A stretch of DNA of 64,000 nt from Rathayibacter sp. VKM Ac-2760 (lineage in GTDB: Bacteria; Actinomycetota; Actinomycetes; Actinomycetales; Microbacteriaceae). The position numbers and the translations under genes are program-made. The notes under the pieces were generated by a model. It did not search any database. It worked only from the letters and a program-made list of their open reading frames with translations, and was not told the origin of the DNA. This document shows positions 22,338 through 32,761 of this stretch, piece by piece. The stretch is from assembly GCF_009834185.1 (NCBI RefSeq), contig NZ_CP047173.1:1391725-1455724 (forward strand). The letters are read 5' to 3'. Within the stretch, counting starts at the first letter, position 1, and every line of letters starts with the position of its first letter.

Positions 22338-23340
22338 AGGGTGCTCCCTTCGCGGGTTCCGGCGGTGGACAGGGTGCGCGGGGCGGCGGCGAGGTCGCCG
22401 AGCACCCCGTCCCAGTCGCGGTGGAACCGGCCGAGGCTGTAGCGCGCGAGCGCGGCCTCACGGGCGACCGCGCCGGCGATCGCGGCCCGCTCCGGATCCT
22501 CGATCAGCGCGCGGGCCGCGGCGGCGAGTGCGTCCAGGTCGTTCGAGATCGCGCCGGCCTCGGGCGGCACGGCGCGGCCGGCCTCGGTCGTCTCGAGCGC
22601 GACGACCGGCATCCCCAGGTGCATCGCCTCGAGCAGCGCGAGCCCGAGCGAGGTCCAGCGGAACGGGTGCAGGTAGACGCGGCGGCGGGCGAGCTCGGCG
22701 TGCATCGCGCCGGTCTTCACATCGCCGAGCACCTCGAGCCGGTCGGCGGGCAGCCCGGGCGTGCCGACGAGCCCCTCGGTCTTCATCCCGAAGACGTCGA
22801 GCGGCGCGACCGCGGCGAAGCGCGGCAGCAGATCGGTGCCGGTCACCCGCTGACGGCGCACCGGCTCGTTGATGACGACGCCGAAGCGCGCCAGCTCGCC
22901 GGTGTAGAGCGGTCCGGGGTCGTTGATCCCGTGCTCGATCACCGTGGTGCGCGTCGATCCGGTATCCCACATCAGCGCGTTGAAGTGCGTCACGTGCACG
23001 AGCAGGAGGTCGTCGCGGTCGGCGAGCGGGTGGCGGTTGTCGGGCACGTCGCCGCGGGGCGTGTTGTGCTCGACGTAGACCGCGGGGATCTCGCGGCCGA
23101 GCCGCCGGCCGAGCAGCCGCTCCGCCTCGGCGAGCTCGTCCGGACGCTGGAGGAGGACGACGTCGACGTCGGCGTCGCGCAGCTCCTCCGGGGCGATCTC
23201 GATCGTGTTCGGCCAGTCGCGGCCGCCGGTGCCGAGGCCCCAGCCGTCGCGGGCCGGAGTGGTGGGGAGCAGGTACTCGTGGTCGCCGCGGACGAACGCG
23301 TCCGCCCAGCCGCCGTGCACGTGCCAGAGCAGGATCCTCA
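22334..23340 (-). CDS. glycosyltransferase (GT-B, GT4-like)
   Basis: [13 protein letters not shown]-terminus and the C-terminal motif [18 protein letters not shown]. It is start/stop coupled to both neighbours. Confidence 0.8.
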
Positions 23341-24420
23341 TGCGAGTGCCTCCGAGGGTGTGGTGGTGGGGGTCGTCGTGGCTGTCGTCGTGGCGCGGCG
23401 CGGGAGCGCGCGGAGCCGGTGCGCGGCGGCCACCGCCTCCTCGGCGCTCACCCCCGCGAGGCAGGGGTGACCGGGCACCGGGCAGACCCGCGCGCGCGAG
23501 CCGGCGCAGGCCGCGCCCTGATCGCCGAGCAGCTCGACCGGCACGCCGTAGGGCGCCCAGCGGATCGCCGGGACGACCGGTGCGAACAGGCTGACGACCG
23601 GGGTGCCGACGGCCGCCGCGAGGTGGGCCGGGCCGGTGTTGCCGCTGATCACGACCTCGGCGCGCGCGAGCACCTCGGCCGCGCCGGCGAAGTCGGTGGC
23701 GCCGCCGAGGTCGATGCCGCGGCTGCCCGCGACCTGCGCGGTGAGCACTCGCTCGCCGGGCCCGCCGGTGACGGCGACCGCGACTCCGGAGTCGGCGAGC
23801 AGCTCCACGGCACGCGCCGCGTTCTCGGCCGGCCAGGCCCGCGCGGGAACGGCGGCACCGGGGTGCACGACCACGTACGGGCCGACCCCCTCGAGCGCGG
23901 CGGGCAGCACGCCCTCGCGGCGCACCCGCAGCAGCCCGTCGTCGCCCTTCGGCAGCGCGAAGCCCGCGGCCGCCGCGATCGCGAGGGCGCGCTCCGGCTC
24001 GGGCTGGTCCTCGTCGAGGGTCTCGCCGGGCACCAGCCGCACGTCGAGCAGGGCACCGGCGAAGTCGACCGAGGCGCCCGAGATCCGGGCGACACCGGCC
24101 AGGCGCAGCAGCAGCGCGAGCGGCAGCGGCGACTGGTGGAAGGAGGTGAGGATCACGGCCTCGTCCGGAGCGAACTCCTCGACGATCGCGCGCAGCTCCG
24201 CCACCAGGGCGGCGTCCACCGGCCGCGAGGCGTCGCCGATCCACGGGCAGGACCAGGTGCGCACCGACGTCGGCCCCGGCAGCAGCGCCGCGGCGGGCGC
24301 CCCCTGCGGCCCGGCGAGCAGCAGCACCTCGGCATCCGCGGCGATCGCCCGCACGGCCGGCCCGCAGAGCAGCACGTCGCCCGCGCTGTCCAGCCGGGCG
24401 ACCAGCACCCGCCGGGTCAC
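23338..24420 (-). CDS. glycosyltransferase family 9 (heptosyltransferase-like)
   Basis: GT9 fold (HPGAAVPARAWP...ISGNTGPAHLAAAVGTPVV). GTG start overlapping the gmhB stop. Confidence 0.85.
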   Translation of the reverse strand: MTRRVLVARLDSAGDVLLCGPAVRAIAADAEVLLLAGPQGAPAAALLPGPTSVRTWSCPWIGDASRPVDAALVAELRAIVEEFAPDEAVILTSFHQSPLPLALLLRLAGVARISGASVDFAGALLDVRLVPGETLDEDQPEPERALAIAAAAGFALPKGDDGLLRVRREGVLPAALEGVGPYVVVHPGAAVPARAWPAENAARAVELLADSGVAVAVTGGPGERVLTAQVAGSRGIDLGGATDFAGAAEVLARAEVVISGNTGPAHLAAAVGTPVVSLFAPVVPAIRWAPYGVPVELLGDQGAACAGSRARVCPVPGHPCLAGVSAEEAVAAAHRLRALPRRATTTATTTPTTTPSEALA

Positions 24421-25028
24421 GCCTCGTCCTCGTCGGGCTGCATCGCGAGCAGCAGCTCCACGGCCTCGAGGAGCGTCGCCGCGCGCAGCGGTGCGGCGGT
24501 CACCTCCTCCGTGCGGGTGATCGGGGTCGGCACGAGGACGCCTCGCGCGCCGGCGGCGGCCGCGGCCCCCACATCGGCGCCGATGTCGCCGATCACAGCG
24601 AGCGACTCGGCGGGCAGATCCAGAGCCCGGGCCGCCTGGAGCACCATGCCCGGAGCGGGCTTGCGGCAGGCGCAGCCGTCCTCCTGCCCGTGCGGGCACA
24701 GCTGCCAGGTGTCGAAGCCGCCGAAGAGCTCGTCCACGCGGCGGTTCACCGCGTCGGCCTGCTCGCGGTCGATGATGCCGCGGGCGATGCCGGACTGGTT
24801 GGTGACGACGCCGACGGCGAGCCCCGACTGGCGGGCCCGGTCCACCGCGTCGAGGGCGGTCGGCATCGGCTCGACCCGCGCCGGGTCGCCGTTGTAGGGC
24901 ACGTCGACGACGAGCGTGGCGTCGCGGTCGAAGAGGATGCCGCGCAGCCGCGGCGCGCCCGCGACGGACGCGACGGGCGCGTCCTCGGCGGTGCGGTGCG
25001 CGGAGCCCTGCTGGATCGAGTCGTTCAC
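24417..25028 (-). CDS. gmhB: D-glycero-D-manno-heptose-1,7-bisphosphate 7-phosphatase (HAD, histidinol-phosphatase-like)
   Basis: HAD motif I (ILFDRDATL) plus a Zn-binding Cys pair (CPHGQEDGCACRKP). The start is taken as GTG at 25028 with a GGAGAAGG RBS. An ATG at 25061 is also possible. Confidence 0.8.
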   Translation of the reverse strand: MNDSIQQGSAHRTAEDAPVASVAGAPRLRGILFDRDATLVVDVPYNGDPARVEPMPTALDAVDRARQSGLAVGVVTNQSGIARGIIDREQADAVNRRVDELFGGFDTWQLCPHGQEDGCACRKPAPGMVLQAARALDLPAESLAVIGDIGADVGAAAAAGARGVLVPTPITRTEEVTAAPLRAATLLEAVELLLAMQPDEDEA

Positions 25029-25156
25029 CTTCTCCTCGTACCCCCCTCGTCCGGGTTCCAAACGCGGGGGAGGAGAAGTCGTCCGCTCGGGCGCGTCGGT
25101 CGCCGTCCGCGTCTGCGCGGGTCCGGGGTCTCCGCGGGTCCGGGGATCCGCGCGCC

Positions 25157-25212
25157 TGAGGATCCCGCGTCCGAGGATCCCGCGTCTGAGGATCCCGCGT
25201 CTGAGCCGCTCG
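25157..25212. repeat. 15-bp tandem direct repeat (GAGGATCCCGCGTCT about 3.5 copies) in a divergent promoter
   Basis: TGAGGATCCCGCGTC / CGAGGATCCCGCGTC / TGAGGATCCCGCGTC, preceded by a CGGGTCCGGGG duplication. It lies between the gmhB-operon start and the GT9 gene at 25250. Confidence 0.7.
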
Positions 25213-25249
25213 GAGCGGGGTACGGGACCTCCGACAGGAAGGAGGCGCC

Positions 25250-26272
25250 GTGCGCGCTCTCACCGCCCCCGACGGCACCCCGGAGATCCTCGCCCTGCGA
25301 GCCCTCAAGCTCGGCGACCTCCTCGTGGCCGTCCCCGCGCTCAAGGCCCTGCGCCGCGGGTTCCCCGAGCACCGGCTGATCCTCGCGACCACGCCCTGGC
25401 TCGAGCCGATCGTCGACCTCGTCGACGGCCTCGACGCGCTCGTCCCGACCCTCCGCGGTCTCGACGACCCGCTGCCGGTCGATCCGGGCCGGATCGAGCT
25501 GGCCGTCAACCTGCACGGCAACGGCCCGGAGTCGCGCGACGCCCTGATCGCGCTGGAGCCGCAGCGCCGGCTCGATTTCCGCGTCCCCGCCCTCGACCCG
25601 GATGCGAGCCACGACGACCCGCGCCCGCTCTGGATCGACGGGGAGCTCGAGCGCGCCCGCTGGGCCCGCCTGGTCAACTCCATCGGCCTCGACGCCGACC
25701 CGGAGGACGTGGCCATCGCCGTCCCGGACGCGCCGGCTCCGGTCGCCGGCGCCGCGATCGTGCACATCGGCGCCTTCTACGGCTCGCGCGAGTGGCCGGA
25801 GGAGCGCTTCGCCGCCGTCGCCCGCTCGCTCGCCGCCGAGGGCCACCGCGTCGTCTACACCGGGGGTGCGAACGAGGCCGACCGCGCCCGCCGCGTCGCC
25901 GAGCTGGCCGGCACCGGCGAGGTGCTCGCCGGCACGATCGACCTGACCGGGTTCGCGGCGGTCGTCGCAGCCTCCGAGGTCCTCGTCACCGTCGACACCG
26001 GAGCCGCGCACCTCGCCTCGGCCTACGGCATCCCGTCGGTGGTGATCTTCGGACCGGCGCCGCCCGAGGCCTGGGGCCCGCCGGTGAGCGGACCGCACGT
26101 CGTGCTGACCGACGCGTCGCTCCGCCGCGGCGACGTCTTCTCCTCCGAGCCGGACCCCGCGCTGCTCGCGGTGCAGACCGAGCACGTGCTCGACGCGCTC
26201 GCCGCTCTGCCCTCGCGCGCCGAGGCGCACCTCAGGCGGTCCGCAGCCGCGCTGCCGGGCGGACGGGCGTGA
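25250..26272 (+). CDS. glycosyltransferase family 9 (heptosyltransferase-like)
   Basis: GT9 motifs (LKLGDLLVAVPALKAL...VDTGAAHLASAYGIPSVV). GTG start with a GGAAGGAGG RBS. Confidence 0.85.
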   Translation: MRALTAPDGTPEILALRALKLGDLLVAVPALKALRRGFPEHRLILATTPWLEPIVDLVDGLDALVPTLRGLDDPLPVDPGRIELAVNLHGNGPESRDALIALEPQRRLDFRVPALDPDASHDDPRPLWIDGELERARWARLVNSIGLDADPEDVAIAVPDAPAPVAGAAIVHIGAFYGSREWPEERFAAVARSLAAEGHRVVYTGGANEADRARRVAELAGTGEVLAGTIDLTGFAAVVAASEVLVTVDTGAAHLASAYGIPSVVIFGPAPPEAWGPPVSGPHVVLTDASLRRGDVFSSEPDPALLAVQTEHVLDALAALPSRAEAHLRRSAAALPGGRA

Positions 26273-27163
26273 CGGTCGCGACCCGCGCGCGGGCCGCCCT
26301 GGGCTGATGGCTGCGCGAGGGGGCGCCGAGGCGGTCGGCGAGCTGCGCGAGGATCCGGCGCTGCAGCCGCGAGACCTGCATCTGCGTGGTCCCGAGCGCG
26401 TCGGCGATCTGCTGCTGCGTCATCTCCTCGACGAAGCGCATCCGGAGCAGCTCGCGCTGGCCGGCCTCCAGCTCCGCGAGCGCCTCGGCCAGACCGTGCC
26501 GGCGGTCGATCGCGGCGAGGTCCGCGTCGTCTCCGCCGAGCGTCTCGCCCAGGCGGACGCCGGTCTCGCCGACCGACTCGTCGAGCGAGAGCGGGTGCCC
26601 CGCCGAGCGCGCGTCCGCGACCTCGGCCGGGTCGACGCCGAGCCGCCGCGCGATCTCGCGATCGGACGGATGACGGCCGAGCTCCTGCGCCAGCTCGTCG
26701 GCGACGACCGCCGAGCGCCGGTGCAGCTCCTGCACCCCGCGGGGCGGCCGGATCATCCAGCCCAGATCGCGGAGATGGCGCTTCAGCTCACCCGTGATCG
26801 TGGGCACCGCGAACGCGGCGAAGCTGTCGCCGCGCTCCGGGCTGAACCGCCGGGCCGCCTTCACGAGACCGACGTAGGCGACCTGCCGGAGATCCGCGCG
26901 ATCGCCGCCGCCGCGGGAGACCCGGTTCGCCATCGCCTCGGCCAGGCCGAGGTGGTCGAGCACGATGCGCTCGCGGATCCGCGCGCCCTCGGCGTCGTCG
27001 GCGCCGGCCGCCGCCTGGAACAGCGAGAGCGTGCGCGCGTCCTTCTCCTCGCGCGGCGATCCGGCCGCCGGGGGGAGCGCGGGCGGCACGGAGGCGGGCG
27101 GCACAGGGGCGGGCGGCACGGGGGCGGGGAGTGCAGTGGCGGTGGCGAGAACGACCGTGCTCA
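26232..27163 (-). CDS. RNA polymerase sigma factor, group 3 (SigB/SigF-like)
   Basis: Sigma-70 regions 2, 3 and 4 are present (region 4 HTH: EEMTQQQIADALGTTQMQVSRLQRR), with a Pro/Ala-rich N-terminus. It is convergent with GT9 and overlaps it by 40 nt. Confidence 0.85.
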
Positions 27164-27352
27164 TCGGTACCCCTTCCGGGCATGCTGGCGCCCAGGTCCG
27201 GAGCGGCGGGTTGCGACGCGCTCGTCGTCGAGCGGCCCCGGGAGAAGCGGTGCCCACAGGCCACCACTGCTCCTCTCGTTCTAGAAGTCCGTTGACTCGG
27301 AGCACTGCTTCGCGCTAGGCACCCCGAGCGCACCCGCCTCCGGCACGTCGAA

Positions 27353-28200
27353 CCACCTCCGGCTCGCAGATCCGCGTCCGGCTCGCTGAATCTCCCGTTT
27401 CCCGCGAGCCGAGCCTGTTTCCGCGAGCCGAGCCTCGACCCGTGGCACCTCCGGCTCGCAGAATGACGTCCGGCTCGCCGAATCGCCTGATTCCCGCGAG
27501 CCGAACCGGTTTCCGCGAGCCGAACCTCGGCCCGCGTCACCTCCGGCTCGCAGATTCGCGTCCGGCTCGCTGAATCGTCTGAATCCGGCGAGCCGAACGG
27601 GTTTCCGCGAGCCGAACCTCGGTCCTCGTCACCTCCGGCTCGCAGATTCGCGTCCGGCTCGCTGAATCGCCCGTTTCCCGCGAGCCGAACGGATTTCCGC
27701 GAGCCGAGCCTCGACCCGTGGCACCTCCGGCTCGCAGAATGACGTCCGGCTCGCCGAATCGCCCGATTCCCGCGAGCCGGACCGGTTTCCGCGAGCCGAA
27801 TCTCGGTCCGAGTCACCTCCGGCTCGCAGATTCGCGTCCGGCTCGCTGAATCGCCCATTTCCCGCGAGCCGGACCGGTTTCCGCGAGCCGAACCGCGACC
27901 CGCGTCACCTCGGGCTCGCAGAATGACGTCCGGCTCGCTGAATCACCTGATTCCCGCGAGCCGAACGGGTTTCCGCGAGCCGAACCTCGGTCCGCGTCAC
28001 CTCCGGCTCGCAGATTGACGTCCGGCTCGCCGAATCGCCTGATTCCCGCGAGCCGGACCGGTTTCCACGAGCCGAGCCTCGGCCCGCGTCACCTCCGGCT
28101 CGCAGATTGACGTCCGGCTCGCCGAATCGCCCGTTTCCCGCGAGCCGAACCGGTTTCCGCGAGCCCGACCTCGGCCCGCGCCACCTCCGCCCCGCAGACC
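27353..28200. repeat. 92-bp tandem repeat array, 9 units plus a degenerate 10th
   Basis: Unit starts at 27353, 27445, 27537, 27629, 27721, 27813, 27905, 27997 and 28089. Each unit is CACCTCCGGCTCGCAGAnnnnnnTCCGGCTCGCyGAATCGCCyGwTTCCCGCGAGCCGAACCGGTTTCCGCGAGCCGAACCTCGGyCCGCGT, i.e. two CCGGCTCGC and two GCGAGCCG blocks per unit (cruciform-capable). Two unit subtypes alternate (GATTCGCG versus GAATGACG). Confidence 0.9.
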
Positions 28201-28302
28201 CCCCCCGCCCCGCCCACCACTCCGACCCCGCCCCATCCCCCTCCCGCCCCCTCGCTGTCCAGTCCGCCCCCGATCCCCGCCCCGCCGCTAGAATCGCCGC
28301 GT
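28190..28302. promoter_or_regulatory. C-rich (minus-strand G-run) tract plus a TAGAAT -10 box 10 nt upstream of the gltX ATG (probable leaderless transcript)
   Basis: About 100 bp with almost no G on the plus strand (CCCCCCCGCCCCGCCC...CCCCCTCCCGCCCC). GCTAGAAT sits at 28286-28293 and the gltX ATG at 28303. Confidence 0.4.
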
Positions 28303-29844
28303 ATGTCTGAGCTCACCCCGCCCTCCGATCGCGCCCACGACGCGCACCCGTTCACCACCGCGACCGGGAGCGACGTCCGCGTCCGCTTCTGCCCGTCCCC
28401 GACCGGGACGCCGCACGTCGGCCTCATCCGCACCGCCCTGTTCAACTGGGCCTACGCGCGGCACACCGGAGGCACCTTCGTCTTCCGGATCGAGGACACC
28501 GACGCGGCCCGCGACAGCGAGGAGAGCTACGAGCAGCTCATCGACGCGCTGCAGTGGCTGAAGCTCGACTGGGACGAGGGCGTCGGAGTCGGCGGCCCGC
28601 ACGGCCCGTACCGCCAGTCCGAGCGCAGCGACGTCTACACCGACGTCATCCAGCGCCTGCTCGCCTCCGGCCACCTCTACGAGAGCTACTCGAACGCGGA
28701 GGAGATCGACGCCCGCAACGAGGCGGCCGGCCGCGCCAAGCAGCACGGCTACGACAACCACGACCGCGACCTCACCGAGGAGCAGCGCGCCGCCTTCCGC
28801 GCCGAGGGCCGCAGCCCCGCGCTGCGCCTGCGCGTCCCGGACGCCGACCTCTCCTTCGACGACCTCGTCCGCGGCGAGATCACCTTCCCGGCCGGCTCGT
28901 TCAGCGACTTCGTCGTCGTCCGCCCCAACGGCCAGCCGCTCTACACGCTGGTGAACCCGGTCGACGACGCGCTCATGCAGATCACCCACGTCCTCCGCGG
29001 CGAGGACATCCTGCCCTCCACCGCGCGCCAGATCGCGCTGTACCACGCGCTGATCGACATCGGAGTGACGACGTTCGTCCCGCGCTTCGGTCACCTCCCC
29101 TACGTGATGGGGGAGGGCAACAAGAAGCTCTCCAAGCGCGACCCCTCGGCCAACCTCTTCCACCACCGCGACCGCGGCTTCATCCCCGAGGGCCTGGTCA
29201 ACTACCTCGCCCTGCTCGGCTGGTCGCTCACCCACGACCGCGACGTCTTCTCGATCGACGAGATGATCGCCGCCTTCGACGTCGCCGACGTGAACCCCAA
29301 CCCGGCCCGCTTCGACCTCAAGAAGGCCGAGTCGATCAACGGCGACCACATCCGCCTGCTCGCGGTCGACGACTTCACCGAGCGCACCATCCCCTACCTG
29401 ATCGCCGCCGGCGTTCTCGAGGGCCGGCCGACCGCCGACCAGCGCGCCGTCCTCGACGCCGCCGCCCCGCTCGTCCAGGAGCGGATCGGCCTGCTCGGCG
29501 AGGCGCCCGGCATGCTCGGCTTCCTCTTCACCACCGCCGACGCCCTCTCCTACGACGAGGACGCGCTGAAGGGCCTGCCCGCGAACGCCGGCGAGGTCCT
29601 CGCCGCATCGATCGGCGCCCTCGAGCTCGTGCCCGAGGGGGAGTGGCTGACCGCTTCGATCCAGGAGGCGCTCGCCGGCGCCCTGATCGAGGGCCTGGGC
29701 CTCAAGCCCCGCATCGCCTACGGGCCGTTGCGCACCGCGATCTCGGGCCGCCGCGTCTCGCCGCCGCTGTTCGAGTCGATGGAGATCCTCGGCAAGTCCG
29801 AGTCGATCGCCCGCCTCGCCCGCCTCGCCGACACCCGGAGCTGA
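28303..29844 (+). CDS. gltX: glutamate--tRNA ligase
   Basis: Class I aaRS HIGH ([15 protein letters not shown]) and KMSKS (KLSKR) motifs. Full-length GluRS. Confidence 0.95.
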
Positions 29845-29846
29845 TC

Positions 29847-30851
29847 GTGGCGGAGGTGCAGGGCGGCCACTACGACGTCGTCATCATCGGAGCCGGTCCC
29901 GCGGGCCTGTCCGCCGGGCTGAATCTCGTTCGTGCGCGCCGCAGCGTGCTGCTGCTCGACAGCAACCGGCCGCGCAACGCGGCGACCCTGCACTCGCACG
30001 GCTTCCTCACCCGCGACGGCGTCTCGCCGCTCGAGCTGCGCCGCCTCGGCCGCGCCGAGCTGGAGCAGTACGACGAGGCCGAGGTGCACAACGCGATGGT
30101 CACCTCCGTCGAGCGCTCCGGCGGCGAGTTCGTCGTCACCGCGAAGGGCGTCCGCGGCTCGGCCGACCGCTCGGTGCTCGCGACCGCCGTCGTCGTCGCC
30201 GGCGGCCTCTCCGAGCGCCTGCCGACGCTGCCGAGCCTCCGCGCCTACTACGGCACCGCCGTGCACAGCTGCATGGAGTGCGACGGCTACGAGAAGGCCG
30301 GCGAGCCGCTCGCGCTGATCGGCGAGACCGCCGACCTCGCCGAGCGCGCCATGCTGCTCTCGCAGTGGTCGACCGACCTCATCGTCTTCACCAACGGCGT
30401 CGGAGTCGTCAGCGACGCCGACGAGTCGCTGCTCGGCTCGATCGGCATCCGCGTCGAGCGCCGCCCCGTCGCCGACCTCGCGGGGGAGCGCGCCGTGATG
30501 ACCGGAGTCGCCCTCGCCGACGGCGACGTCATCCCGCGCACCGGCGCCTTCGTCCGCCCGGTCTGGGTGCCCGTCCTCGACTACCTCGACCCGGCCGGCC
30601 CCGACGTGGACGCCGACGGCTTCCTCCGCGTCGACGCGGGCGGCCGCACCTCCGTCCCCGGCCTCTACGGCGCCGGCGAGGTCACCGCCCCCGGACCGCA
30701 GCAGCTGATCGTCGCCGCCGGCTCCGGCGCGCAGGTCGCCTCGGCGATCAACCGCGACCTCGTCCGCGCCCGCCTCGGCGAGGCCGCGCCCGAGTCGGAG
30801 GCCCCCGCCATCGACACCCGGGCCGCCGATCTGAGCGACGTCCGTCCGTAG
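29847..30851 (+). CDS. FAD/NAD(P)-binding oxidoreductase (thioredoxin-reductase-like)
   Basis: GTG start 2 nt after the gltX stop. It has a VIIGAGPAGLSAG dinucleotide motif and a CMECDG redox-type motif. Confidence 0.8.
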   Translation: MAEVQGGHYDVVIIGAGPAGLSAGLNLVRARRSVLLLDSNRPRNAATLHSHGFLTRDGVSPLELRRLGRAELEQYDEAEVHNAMVTSVERSGGEFVVTAKGVRGSADRSVLATAVVVAGGLSERLPTLPSLRAYYGTAVHSCMECDGYEKAGEPLALIGETADLAERAMLLSQWSTDLIVFTNGVGVVSDADESLLGSIGIRVERRPVADLAGERAVMTGVALADGDVIPRTGAFVRPVWVPVLDYLDPAGPDVDADGFLRVDAGGRTSVPGLYGAGEVTAPGPQQLIVAAGSGAQVASAINRDLVRARLGEAAPESEAPAIDTRAADLSDVRP

Positions 30852-30886
30852 CCCGGGCCGGTCGATTTGAGCGACGTCCGTCCGTA
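30828..30886. repeat. 24-bp direct duplication (GATyTGAGCGACGTCCGTCCGTAG x2) spanning the oxidoreductase stop, about 75 bp upstream of tRNA-Gln
   Basis: Copies at 30828-30851 and 30863-30886, separated by 11 bp. Confidence 0.7.
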
Positions 30887-30960
30887 GGGTACTGTCGTCT
30901 CTCGGCGCCGGGTTCACCCCCGATCGCCATCTGGTCCCGGCCTCACCGCCGGATGACCAT

Positions 30961-31032
30961 TGGGGTATGGTGTAATTGGCAACACGACTGATTCTGGTTC
31001 AGTTGTTCTTGGTTCGAGTCCAGGTACCCCAG
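30961..31032 (+). tRNA. tRNA-Gln (anticodon CUG)
   Basis: Hand-folded: acceptor TGGGGTA/TACCCCA (U1-A72), U8, D stem GTGT/ACAC, anticodon stem ACTGA/TCAGT with loop TTCTGGT (U33, CUG), T arm CTTGG-TTCGAGT-CCAGG, discriminator G. No encoded CCA. Confidence 0.85.
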
Positions 31033-31240
31033 CACTTCTCCTCCTCGCCCTGAGGATCCTCGCCCGGCTGTCGCCCGCCGCTGTTCCGGCTGTGTCGTTC
31101 CGGCAGCGCCGCGCGTCTCGCGCAGGGCCGCTGCATCCCCCGCCCGGCCGACGCCCGACTCCTCCCGGCATGCCACGATGAACCTGTACATCGCTCAGAA
31201 ACCCGCCTCCCGCGGGTTCCGAGAAGGGGGTCTCTCGTCC

Positions 31241-32761
31241 ATGAATTCTGATCTGCTCTGGGTCGTCGGCGCCGGCATCGTCGTCGGCGTCGTGCTGCTG
31301 CTCGCCATCATCGGCTTCTTCATCTTCCGGGCCTGGTACCAGGTCCCGCAGGCCGACGAGGCCATCGTGATCGTCGGAAAGAAGCAGAAGGGCGACGACG
31401 GCCTGACCTCGAACATGACCGTCATCACCGGCGGCGGCGCCTTCGTCAACAAGCTGACCCAGCGCTCCGACCGCATCTCGCTGCGGTCGCGGCAGATCAA
31501 GATGGAGCCGGTCGCGCAGACCAAGAACGGCGTCACGATCCACCTCGCGGGCGTCGCCCTCGTCAAGATCGGCTCCACGCCCGACCAGGTGCGCGCCGCC
31601 GCCGAGCGGTTCGCCTCTCAGGACCAGTCGATCGACGTCTTCACGACCGAGCAGCTCGAGGGCGCGCTGCGCGGCGTCGTCGCGAAGCTCAGCGTCGAGG
31701 AGGTCATGCAGGACCGCCAGAAGCTCGGTGACGAGATCGCCGAGGGCATCAAGGGCGACCTGCTCGCCCAGGGGCTCGTCCTCGACTCCTTCGCCATCCA
31801 GGGCGTCACCGACCGCAACGGCTACATCGAGGCGCTCGGCGCGCAGGAGATCGAGCGCGTCCGCCGCGAGGCCGACGTCGCCCGGATCAACGCGGCCCGC
31901 GAGGTCAAGGCCCGTCAGCTCGCCACCGACGAGGCGAACCTGATCGAGCAGACCGCCTTCGACAAGAACACCGCCGCCTCGAAGTCCGAGGTCGGCCGCG
32001 CCAACGCCGAGGCCGAGCAGGCCGAGAACCTCGCCCGCGCCGAGCGCGAGCAGGCCGTCCTCGTCCAGCGCGCCGAGAACCGGCAGGCCGAGCTCGACGC
32101 CGACGTCAAGCGCGTCGCCGACGCCGAGAAGTACCGCCGCCAGACCGAGGCCGACGCCGACGCCTACGGGCGCGAGAAGAAGGCCTCGACGGATCGCCAG
32201 GTCGCGCAGCAGGTGTCCGACGCCGAGGCCTACGCCGTCCAGCGCCAGGCCGAGGCCCGTCAGGCGTCCGCCGCGGCCGAGGCGGCGGCTCTGAGCGCCC
32301 GCGCCGAGGCGGAGGCCCACGCCCTGCGGGCCAAGGCCGGCGCCGAGGCCGAGGCCCTGCGCGCGAACGCCGCGGCCGAGGCGGAGGCCATCCGCGCTAA
32401 GGGTGAGGCGAGCGCGGCCGCGATCCAGGCCGAGGCGGAGGCCCTCCGCGAGAACCAGGAGGCGATCCTGGGCCGCGAGCTCATCGGACAGCTCCCCTCC
32501 CTCATGGCGGAGTTCGCGAAGGGCTACCAGAACGTCGGCACCGTCACCCTGATCGGCGGCGACACCGCCGGCACCCACATCGCCCGGGAGCAGGCGGCGA
32601 GCCTCGCGGCCACCTTCGACAGCGTGAAGTCCGCGACCGGCGTCGACCTCGGCGCGATCCTGCAGGGCCAGGCGTTCGGCCGGGGAGTGGCGTCGGCCGC
32701 CGAGCCCGCCGCTCCCACCGGCCTCACCGGCGATCCCACCGCCGTCCCCTCGACGAGCTGA
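31241..32761 (+). CDS. SPFH/band-7 (flotillin-like) membrane scaffold protein
   Basis: N-terminal TM segment, an SPFH domain, then a long Ala/Glu-rich coiled coil (AEAEALRA repeats). The start is taken at MNSDLLW with a GAGAAGGGGG RBS. Confidence 0.85.
   Translation: MNSDLLWVVGAGIVVGVVLLLAIIGFFIFRAWYQVPQADEAIVIVGKKQKGDDGLTSNMTVITGGGAFVNKLTQRSDRISLRSRQIKMEPVAQTKNGVTIHLAGVALVKIGSTPDQVRAAAERFASQDQSIDVFTTEQLEGALRGVVAKLSVEEVMQDRQKLGDEIAEGIKGDLLAQGLVLDSFAIQGVTDRNGYIEALGAQEIERVRREADVARINAAREVKARQLATDEANLIEQTAFDKNTAASKSEVGRANAEAEQAENLARAEREQAVLVQRAENRQAELDADVKRVADAEKYRRQTEADADAYGREKKASTDRQVAQQVSDAEAYAVQRQAEARQASAAAEAAALSARAEAEAHALRAKAGAEAEALRANAAAEAEAIRAKGEASAAAIQAEAEALRENQEAILGRELIGQLPSLMAEFAKGYQNVGTVTLIGGDTAGTHIAREQAASLAATFDSVKSATGVDLGAILQGQAFGRGVASAAEPAAPTGLTGDPTAVPSTS

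Follow-up and report, generated by a model that had tools for sequence, protein, structure and literature searches.

Between the divergent genes for a group-3 sigma factor and for glutamate--tRNA ligase (gltX), Rathayibacter sp. VKM Ac-2760 carries a long array of 92-bp repeats, and the question raised by this locus is what kind of DNA the array is and whether the number of its units matters for the two genes beside it. We addressed this in a stretch of 64,000 nucleotides, here referred to as the window, and in related genomes. The data presented here indicate that the array is probably a tandemly amplified, copy-number-variable cluster of an interspersed palindromic element specific to Rathayibacter.

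Anatomy of the array and its flanks

The features of the locus are as follows (window coordinates).

26232..27164, minus strand: group-3 sigma factor of the SigB/SigF/SigG family, 310 aa (Pfam Sigma70_r2, r3 and r4)
27292..27321, plus strand: promoter-like block TTGACT-N18-TAGGCA, left of the array and directed at it (from conservation)
27337..27353, plus strand: extra degenerate subrepeat CCTCCGGCACGTCGAAC, abutting unit 1 on the left (from sequence and a weak HMM match)
27354..28198: tandem array of 845 bp, nine full 92-bp units, then the initial 17 bp of a tenth (Tandem Repeats Finder)
27354, 27446, 27538, 27630, 27722, 27814, 27906, 27998 and 28090: starts of the nine units, each extending to start +91
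27354..27437: element core of unit 1, ~80-84 bp (from unit alignment, family consensus and single-unit fold)
28182..28254, plus strand: C-rich tract with the unit-like start CACCTCCGCCCCGCAGA (from sequence, GC skew and comparison with relatives)
28289..28294, plus strand: TAGAAT (TAGGAT in distant relatives), 8 nt 5' of the gltX ATG (from intergenic alignments)
28303..29844, plus strand: gltX, glutamate--tRNA ligase, 513 aa (Pfam tRNA-synt_1c and Anticodon_2)

The flanking genes are those named by an earlier, sequence-only reading of this DNA, with the sigma-factor gene starting at 27164 (minus strand) and gltX at 28303 (plus strand). The array lies 189 bp from the sigma start and 104 bp ahead of the gltX ATG. 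The sigma-factor protein matches NCBIfam TIGR02980 with an E value of 2.5e-61, under the curated cut-off, and the window GltX is 99.0% identical to a protein of unclassified Rathayibacter and 98.8% identical to one of R. festucae.

The 92-bp tandem array described by the sequence-only reading was borne out, with 9.2 units lying head to tail over 27354-28198: Tandem Repeats Finder reported a period of 92, 9.2 copies, 87% matches, 0% indels and a score of 1249, and a repeat search of the window recovered nine in-register copies exactly 92 bp apart. Each unit consists of CACC, two copies of TCCGGCTCGC followed by 9 bases each, a short centre, CGCGAGCCGA plus 9 bases twice, and a ~12-bp linker, which takes up the final ~10-12 bp of the 92. 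In unit 1, two direct 19-bp subrepeats come first, their core CGGCTCGC occupying unit positions 7-14 and 26-33, and then two inverted ones, in which GCGAGCCG occupies 51-58 and 70-77. Within the 64-kb window, TCCGGCTCGC occurs 21 times against 1.8 occurrences expected from shuffling, and 20 of the 21 are inside the array. Every unit had been said to hold two of each of two mutually complementary blocks, which is correct overall (exact CCGGCTCGC at 17 and exact GCGAGCCG at 16 of 18 expected places each) but for three deviations of a single base, found in units 7, 8 and 9.

The units differ from one another at ~10-13% of positions, and a regular alternation of two subtypes, from which the duplication of a 184-bp block had been deduced, could not be recovered. 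By their diagnostic bases the units follow each other in the order A B A A B A B B' B'. On average, units one, two and three places apart (lags 1, 2 and 3) share an identity of 0.876, 0.879 and 0.904, respectively. There is therefore no 184-bp higher-order period, and duplication of such a block is not seen. The array is non-coding, as was assumed before, since 92 is not a multiple of 3 and a GC3-based caller places no gene in it. It was also rightly set apart from CRISPR, as the units are contiguous and the ~12-bp linkers are themselves repeated, without unique spacers. A replication origin or terminus was considered as well and rejected, as the change in GC-skew sign near 25 kb only tracks the switch in gene orientation.

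The extra subrepeat on the left is part of a weak match (18 bits, 27337-27369) to the family HMM described below. On the right, the C-rich tract has a GC skew of -0.57 to -0.61, is missing from all relatives compared (L116-L122) and is probably a decayed tenth unit. In intergenic alignments, TTGACT-N18-TAGGCA is kept in P0001-group species, R. toxicus and R. festucae-clade genomes, which suggests that it may function as a promoter-like block; a conserved inverted repeat, CACTGCTCC / GGAGCACTG, also lies left of the array. On its right, TAGAAT probably serves gltX as the -10 box of a promoter of the leaderless type. A scan of 27000-28500 for sigma-70 consensus promoters called no site, TTGACT-N18-TAGGCA included, and the same interval yielded 0 terminator-like sites. 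In all alleles the conserved promoter-like blocks are outside the array, which fills the non-conserved middle of the spacer.

That the array, or its length, is an artefact of assembly was raised earlier and seems to us extremely improbable. A Logan short-read assembly of SRR10912304 from the same strain, built separately from that of the window, agrees with window positions 23232-27447 at 100% identity and ends after unit 1. It thus reproduces the left junction and unit 1 exactly and does not confirm the copy number, which rests on the window's own assembly; the break itself would fit what is expected where a repeat exceeds the read length. In addition, the divergence between units (~12%) is non-periodic, unlike the outcome of collapse or expansion, and 1- and 4-unit versions occur at the same site in relatives, one of them a complete genome.

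A dispersed palindromic family with variable copy number

The array is not the purely local minisatellite that it had been taken for, since its units are copies of a dispersed palindromic family. A pattern scan for TCCGGCTCGC-N9-TCCGGCTCGC in one genome per species (185,579 species) yielded 101 stretches, of which nine Rathayibacter genomes account for 48. Among the loci found in this way, an HMM of the nine window units detected 45 (53 clusters), all from the nine Rathayibacter species, with matches on both strands because the element is a palindrome. With both methods, the search for dispersed single units was thus positive in Rathayibacter. The 2-12 loci per Rathayibacter genome are a lower bound, given the strict pattern. 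Reciprocally, a family HMM built only from 54 dispersed copies of other Rathayibacter genomes matched each window unit with 65-71 bits (E 1e-19 to 1e-21) and found no further copy in the 64-kb window beyond the array. Applied to the pattern matches from other taxa, the unit HMM found none outside Rathayibacter. The matches in Streptomyces, Hyphomonas, Kribbella, Amycolatopsis and other taxa correspond to short tandem repeats of 19 bp or to conserved coding sequence; they share the 10-mer, are unmatched by the unit HMM and are regarded as ascertainment hits. An exception is a Pirellulales MAG with a palindromic repeat on the same GCGAGCCGGAGG 12-mer, which is possibly related. In the literature searched on Rathayibacter repeats, actinobacterial REP/RAYT and MITEs, we found no published description of the family.

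The consensus of the 54 dispersed copies is CACCTCCGGCTCGCnGAAnCnCGTCCGGCTCGCnGGATCCGCCGnTTCCnGCGAGCCGGACGCGnTTCCGCGAGCCGGAGGTnn. The element is ~80 bp long and has four ~19-bp subrepeats, each composed of the near-invariant TCCGGCTCGC and a spacer, two of them direct and the next two inverted. With this layout the whole element is a long palindrome with the termini CACCTCCGGCTCGC / GCGAGCCGGAGGTG, terminal inverted repeats of 14 bp that correspond to its outer subrepeats. Most dispersed copies are solitary. The number of subrepeats per arm varies from 2 to 4, as certain copies have an arm with three or four of them. Subrepeats are spaced 19/25/19 bp within elements, and successive elements are ~92 bp apart at independent loci. 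This ~92-bp period is found in the arrays of L083 (two), L056, L043 and L120, and in these, as in the window, the core orientation + + - - is repeated with it.

Genes in the family loci were called with a simple GC3-based caller, which reproduced the window genes, matching the recorded calls of related loci. The 53 clusters are distributed as follows.

Between co-directional genes: 29/53
Between convergent genes: 12/53
Between divergent genes, the window included: 4/53
Overlapping an ORF call: 3/53
At a locus edge: 5/53

Hence, where genes could be called to either side, which applies to 48 clusters, 45 are intergenic. Among the 29 clusters between co-directional genes, 25 are closer to the upstream stop than to the downstream start. 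Solitary copies begin a median of 18 nt past a stop codon (range, 0-52), and for certain convergent pairs the element makes up the whole spacer. The array of the window, in a 5'/5' spacer, is atypical for the family. Several copies occupy orthologous positions in 3-4 species, an indication that inheritance is mostly vertical. Among the 45 loci no gene or transposase recurs beside the elements apart from orthologous neighbours and ABC-type paralogues, and for 32 solitary copies no direct flank repeat of 2-8 bp, as a target-site duplication would leave, exceeded chance at any boundary offset.

At the sigma-gltX locus itself, unit number varies between relatives, as the sequence-only reading had anticipated. 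The R. festucae-clade loci were reached via members of the gltX 90% protein cluster, an exact look-up of the window gltX having given no match, and several of the copy numbers given here rest on short-read assemblies.

P0001-group Rathayibacter (gltX 93% identical): spacer of 250 bp, no units
R. toxicus (gltX 87% identical): spacer of 212 bp, no units
L117 and L118 = L122: spacer of 265 bp, half an element (two inverted subrepeats)
R. festucae DSM 15932, complete genome (L116): spacer of 340 bp, 1 unit
L119 and L120 = L121: spacer of 608-609 bp, 4 units (Tandem Repeats Finder: period 92, copies 4.0)
Window: spacer of 1138 bp, 9.2 units

There are thus 0.5, 1 and 4 units within the R. festucae clade, 9.2 in the window and none farther out, and with spacers of 0.5, 1, 4 and 9.2 units the locus behaves as a VNTR. 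The 0.5-, 1- and 4-unit genomes share 96-98% identity in their flanks, to which the flanks of the window are 86-96% identical; L118 and L120 even encode an identical GltX protein. Units share an identity of 0.90 inside the window array and 0.82 inside that of L120, against 0.74 between both, and this higher identity within than between arrays points to concerted evolution or independent expansions. At a second orthologous locus (L017, L026, L047 and L083) there are 1, 1, 1 and 3 units, respectively.

Hairpin potential, sequence constraint and origin of the array

The sequence-only reading had proposed that units fold on themselves and pair with their neighbours, and folding bears this out. When folded, solitary copies reached -78.9 and -88.1 kcal/mol (z -9.8 and -11.2) and are predicted to form near-perfect, very stable hairpins on either strand. 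For window units, the values were -42 kcal/mol on the plus strand and -49 to -55 kcal/mol on the minus strand, the latter being better because the mismatches are mostly A.C on the plus strand; the whole array gave -553.7 kcal/mol on the minus strand (z -13.4). Of 41 pairs, 23-27 are Watson-Crick pairs in window units and mostly 26-35 in solitary copies. Since the unit hairpins are weaker than those of solitary copies (-42 to -55 versus -79 to -88 kcal/mol), cruciform formation is, if anything, less favoured in the array.

How far pairing as such is under selection can be judged from the dispersed copies. Covariation was not apparent, as 76.4% of cells were paired compared with 76.2 +/- 0.5 in shuffles, variable pairs were not in excess (784 observed versus 773 expected), and no i+j=84 column pair was among the top pairs by mutual information. 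Furthermore, the core variant CGGCACGC, present in one half only, disrupts complementarity and is still kept in several arrays. Because the spacers vary without compensation, the conserved part is the four phased 10-mers rather than the pairing, and this keeps a protein-recognition model alive. Downstream of the hairpin there is no U-tract (mean of 2.3 T in 16 nt), and with no terminator-like site in the window region either, the element is not a canonical intrinsic terminator. A search of Rfam returned no family at gathering score and, at E <= 10, only sub-threshold generic miRNA-type hairpins. Taken together, the missing U-tract, the missing covariation and the persistence of CGGCACGC weaken an RNA-hairpin reading. 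The sole strand-specific hint of RNA-level selection, and a weak one, is a slight excess of G.U over A.C among the sense-strand mismatches of solitary copies (88 versus 58; 15 elements versus 7).

In our view, the element is best read as a REP/BIME- or TRIT-like 3'-end hairpin element that may have been amplified in a permissive promoter-spacer region. When transcribed at a gene end, it would give a ~38-bp GC-rich hairpin that could limit read-through or protect the 3' end, a role modelled on proposals for REP elements and mycobacterial TRITs. It is probable that an element already present in the R. festucae clade expanded in the sigma-gltX spacer by slipped-strand mispairing or unequal recombination, and that units were partly homogenised inside each array and afterwards decayed as hairpins. 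The poor hairpins and the range of 0 to 9 units beside the essential gltX argue for a tolerated, recombination-driven expansion at a permissive site, so that the array is most likely tolerated spacer DNA and at most might block or insulate, between the divergent promoters, transcription that enters from either side.

This bears on the idea of a contingency-type VNTR, in which unit number would set the output of the divergent promoters via spacing, supercoiling or cruciform extrusion. The position of the array between two divergent genes, its 0.5, 1, 4 and 9.2 units among close relatives and the self-complementarity of all units and all neighbouring unit pairs would suit such a device. It is distinctly unlikely, however, as the divergence of ~10-13% between units contrasts with the frequent reversible slippage typical of contingency loci, the window units are degraded palindromes relative to solitary copies, no allele has the promoter-like blocks inside the array, the essential gltX is compatible with anything from 0 to 9 units, and elsewhere the element is found at gene 3' ends and not at promoters. 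That gltX is kept beside 0.5-9 units fits tolerance as well as regulation, and tuning of both promoters by copy number is a hypothetical role. A mobile origin, as a miniature transposable element (MITE- or REPIN-like) served by a transposase encoded elsewhere and forming the array by repeated adjacent insertion, would account for a dispersed family whose presence differs by species and for the inverted termini of 14 bp, and site-specific insertion next to an existing copy could explain why independent loci share the ~92-bp period. Yet target-site duplications of 2-8 bp above chance, a REP-type GTAG head and a transposase recurring beside the elements of the 45 loci are all missing, retention at orthologous positions in 3-4 species speaks of mostly vertical inheritance, and concerted evolution in the arrays fits recombination; we regard this origin as very doubtful.

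The constraint on the 10-mers lends itself to a further reading, namely that they are binding sites for a sequence-specific protein (four phased 10-mers per element, 36 in the array), with the palindrome as a by-product and the array as a high-capacity platform (nucleoid, insulator or centromere-like) or a titration site. It draws on cores that are near-invariant while spacers vary freely without compensation, on the fixed spacing of 19/25/19 bp and ~92 bp at independent loci, on arms of 2 to 4 subrepeats of 19 bp and on the persistence of a core variant that destroys complementarity. We nevertheless consider it unlikely, since there is no candidate protein and no recurrent neighbour gene, the bias to the first ~20 nt past stop codons is easier to understand at the transcript level, and the G.U excess on the sense strand points, weakly, to RNA. 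A more specific proposal, to which we give little credence, is that TCCGGCTCGC, with the termini CACCTCC / GGAGGTG, could be the recognition site of a dedicated putative DNA- or dsRNA-binding factor that marks gene ends. It is left open by the lack of covariation, the persistent non-complementary cores and the fixed 19-bp and 92-bp phasing, and the Pirellulales MAG repeat on GCGAGCCGGAGG would also fit it. If true, the element would belong to a sequence-specific termination or 3'-processing system rather than act as a passive hairpin, and the array with its 36 sites would offer the factor a strong sink or platform, located between gltX and the gene for a stress sigma factor.

Significance and relation to known systems

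Read as a 3'-end hairpin element, the family is a new REP/BIME-like interspersed palindromic family in a known bacterial class, a modest rather than a radical novelty, and its main peculiarities are the build from four subrepeats and the absent covariation. It adds such palindromes to the Microbacteriaceae, where elements of this kind are little documented. Its placement ~18 nt past the stop without a U-tract bears on how transcripts end or are stabilised in high-GC actinobacteria, a matter still debated for mycobacteria. On the practical side, the 0.5 to 9 units among R. festucae-clade genomes provide a ready polymorphic marker for typing of Rathayibacter strains. The elements also break short-read assemblies and mislead annotation, as in R. 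festucae DSM 15932, where the sigma ORF call runs through the element.

Tandem arrays that vary between strains are familiar from the MIRU-VNTR loci of mycobacteria, which are intergenic and have 40-100 bp units in strain-variable number. MIRUs are not known to be long palindromes, and many of them are located within operons, where they preserve reading frames; the window units, in contrast, each represent a copy of a dispersed hairpin element, and their length of 92 bp is not divisible by 3. With MITEs such as Correia/NEMIS and ERIC, the Rathayibacter element shares its small size, its lack of coding capacity, its dispersal, its inverted termini and a hairpin when transcribed, but it differs in that no target-site duplication and no related insertion sequence were identified here and in that tandem arrays are atypical for MITEs.

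In position and structure, the element matches the pattern of both REP and TRIT (PMC2817692; PMC3152330). REP elements are short extragenic palindromes found genome-wide, mostly in 3' or inter-operon spacers, and BIMEs are regular tandem clusters with units of ~90-100 bp in alternating orientation (PMC2817692, PMC3116915). Like these, the Rathayibacter element is a dispersed, extragenic, imperfect palindrome that is clustered with alternating orientation, and it is mostly inherited vertically, with a copy number that varies between strains; as in REPINs, inverted copies give long hairpins. It differs from REP in having four 19-bp subrepeats instead of two stem-loops of ~25-35 bp, in opening with CACCTCCGGCTCGC instead of a GTAG head, in its actinobacterial host (REP, BIME and REPIN are proteobacterial) and in apparently fewer copies per genome, at least 2-12 loci by the strict pattern, which is a lower bound. 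The TRIT (Tuberculosis Rho-independent terminator) of Mycobacterium was described by Gardner et al. in 2011 (PMC3152330) as a motif centred about -8 relative to the stop codon, and those authors also suspected a factor that recognises the conserved sequence. TRITs and the Rathayibacter element are both genus-restricted, conserved actinobacterial palindromes with dozens to >100 copies at gene ends, are bidirectional and lack a classical U-tract. The Rathayibacter elements, however, begin a median of 18 nt past the stop, and tandem arrays of 92 bp are unreported for TRITs; the two are told apart here by described position, and their sequences appear to be unrelated. The closest analogues in function and architecture would be REP/BIME/REPIN and TRIT and, as a locus, a MIRU-type VNTR.

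Sequences around the array between the sigma gene and gltX

Three features lie close to the array of 92-bp units, in the sigma gene (SigB/SigF/SigG family, minus strand) or between that gene and gltX:

27074-27142, minus-strand coding: in-frame tandem repeat of 15 bp, 3.6 copies, at the N-terminus of the sigma gene
27265-27321, directed towards gltX: conserved inverted repeat CACTGCTCC ... GGAGCACTG around TTGACT
28182-28254: 73-nt, extremely C-rich tract (GC skew of about -0.6) that separates the array from the gltX promoter region

The 15-bp repeat encodes a P/A/V-rich N-terminal peptide repeat (...LPAPVPPAPVPPASVPPALPP...), and the sigma factor is 310 amino acids long in the window, compared with 293 to 301 amino acids in relatives. 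Thus, a length-variable repeat exists within the sigma gene itself, beside the array. In R. festucae DSM 15932 (CP028137.1; locus L116, 2755-4125), the record sourced from NCBI (GCA_004011135.1) has the sigma gene encoding 456 amino acids, and this ORF crosses the entire spacer between the two genes, together with the element inside it, and reaches into the start of gltX. The annotation looks like an ORF call that was extended too far due to the high-GC repeat.

The block at 27265-27321 is conserved from R. toxicus through the R. festucae clade, with TAGGCA located 18 nt downstream of TTGACT. A scan with the sigma-70 consensus made no promoter call at this block, which may be an operator or alternative-sigma promoter.

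The C-rich tract was found only in the genome of the window. It has a unit-like start, with the identical change of CCGGCTCGC to CCGCCCCGC in both subrepeat cores. Because G-runs are abundant on its minus strand, that strand may be capable of G-quadruplex formation. The plus-strand RNA would look like a Rho-loading site.

Element termini and element-bordered gene blocks

In the family consensus (alignment A1), the element begins and ends with CACCTCC and GGAGGTG, which correspond, respectively, to the anti-Shine-Dalgarno sequence at the 3' end of 16S rRNA and to a perfect Shine-Dalgarno sequence. If the element were transcribed, its Shine-Dalgarno-like end would be base-paired at the foot of the predicted hairpin. 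CACCTCC is retained in the window units (starts at 27354 + 92n), so that a minus-strand RNA, if produced, would carry GGAGGUG 10 times.

We also compared one orthologous element-bearing site among loci from other genomes (L017 5459-5583 versus L026 3171-6226; also L047 and L083). In one species, a single element separates gene A from gene C; in another, a 3-kb block of three genes lies between genes A and C, with an element on each side of it; and a third species has a different insert. Thus, the elements border variable gene blocks, an arrangement consistent with either element-to-element recombination or cassettes carrying an element of their own.

Other repeats in the window and the motif outside Rathayibacter

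The window contains four other tandem repeats, none of which resembles the 92-bp unit:

2205-2314: 15 bp, 7.1 copies
25131-25205: 15 bp, 4.9 copies
30817-30887: 36 bp, 2.0 copies, just upstream of tRNA-Gln (30961-31033)
32269-32397: 33 bp, 3.9 copies, within the Band_7 gene

Outside Rathayibacter, the same 12-mer (GCGAGCCGGAGG / CCTCCGGCTCGC) is the building block of a palindromic repeat observed in the Pirellulales (planctomycete) MAG DATKRK01, at no fewer than three loci:

L012, 250-460: palindromic repeat
L045, 2900-3100: palindromic repeat
L029, 1990-2170: palindromic repeat

The orientation of the 12-mer in this repeat is '- - ... + +'. The same 10-mer is also present in short tandem repeats of 19 bp at loci from Amycolatopsis, Kribbella, Acidimicrobiales, and Solirubrobacterales (L028, L070, L090, L061, and L015). 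Ascertainment through the pattern used for the search may explain these occurrences, or the motif may be used more widely.
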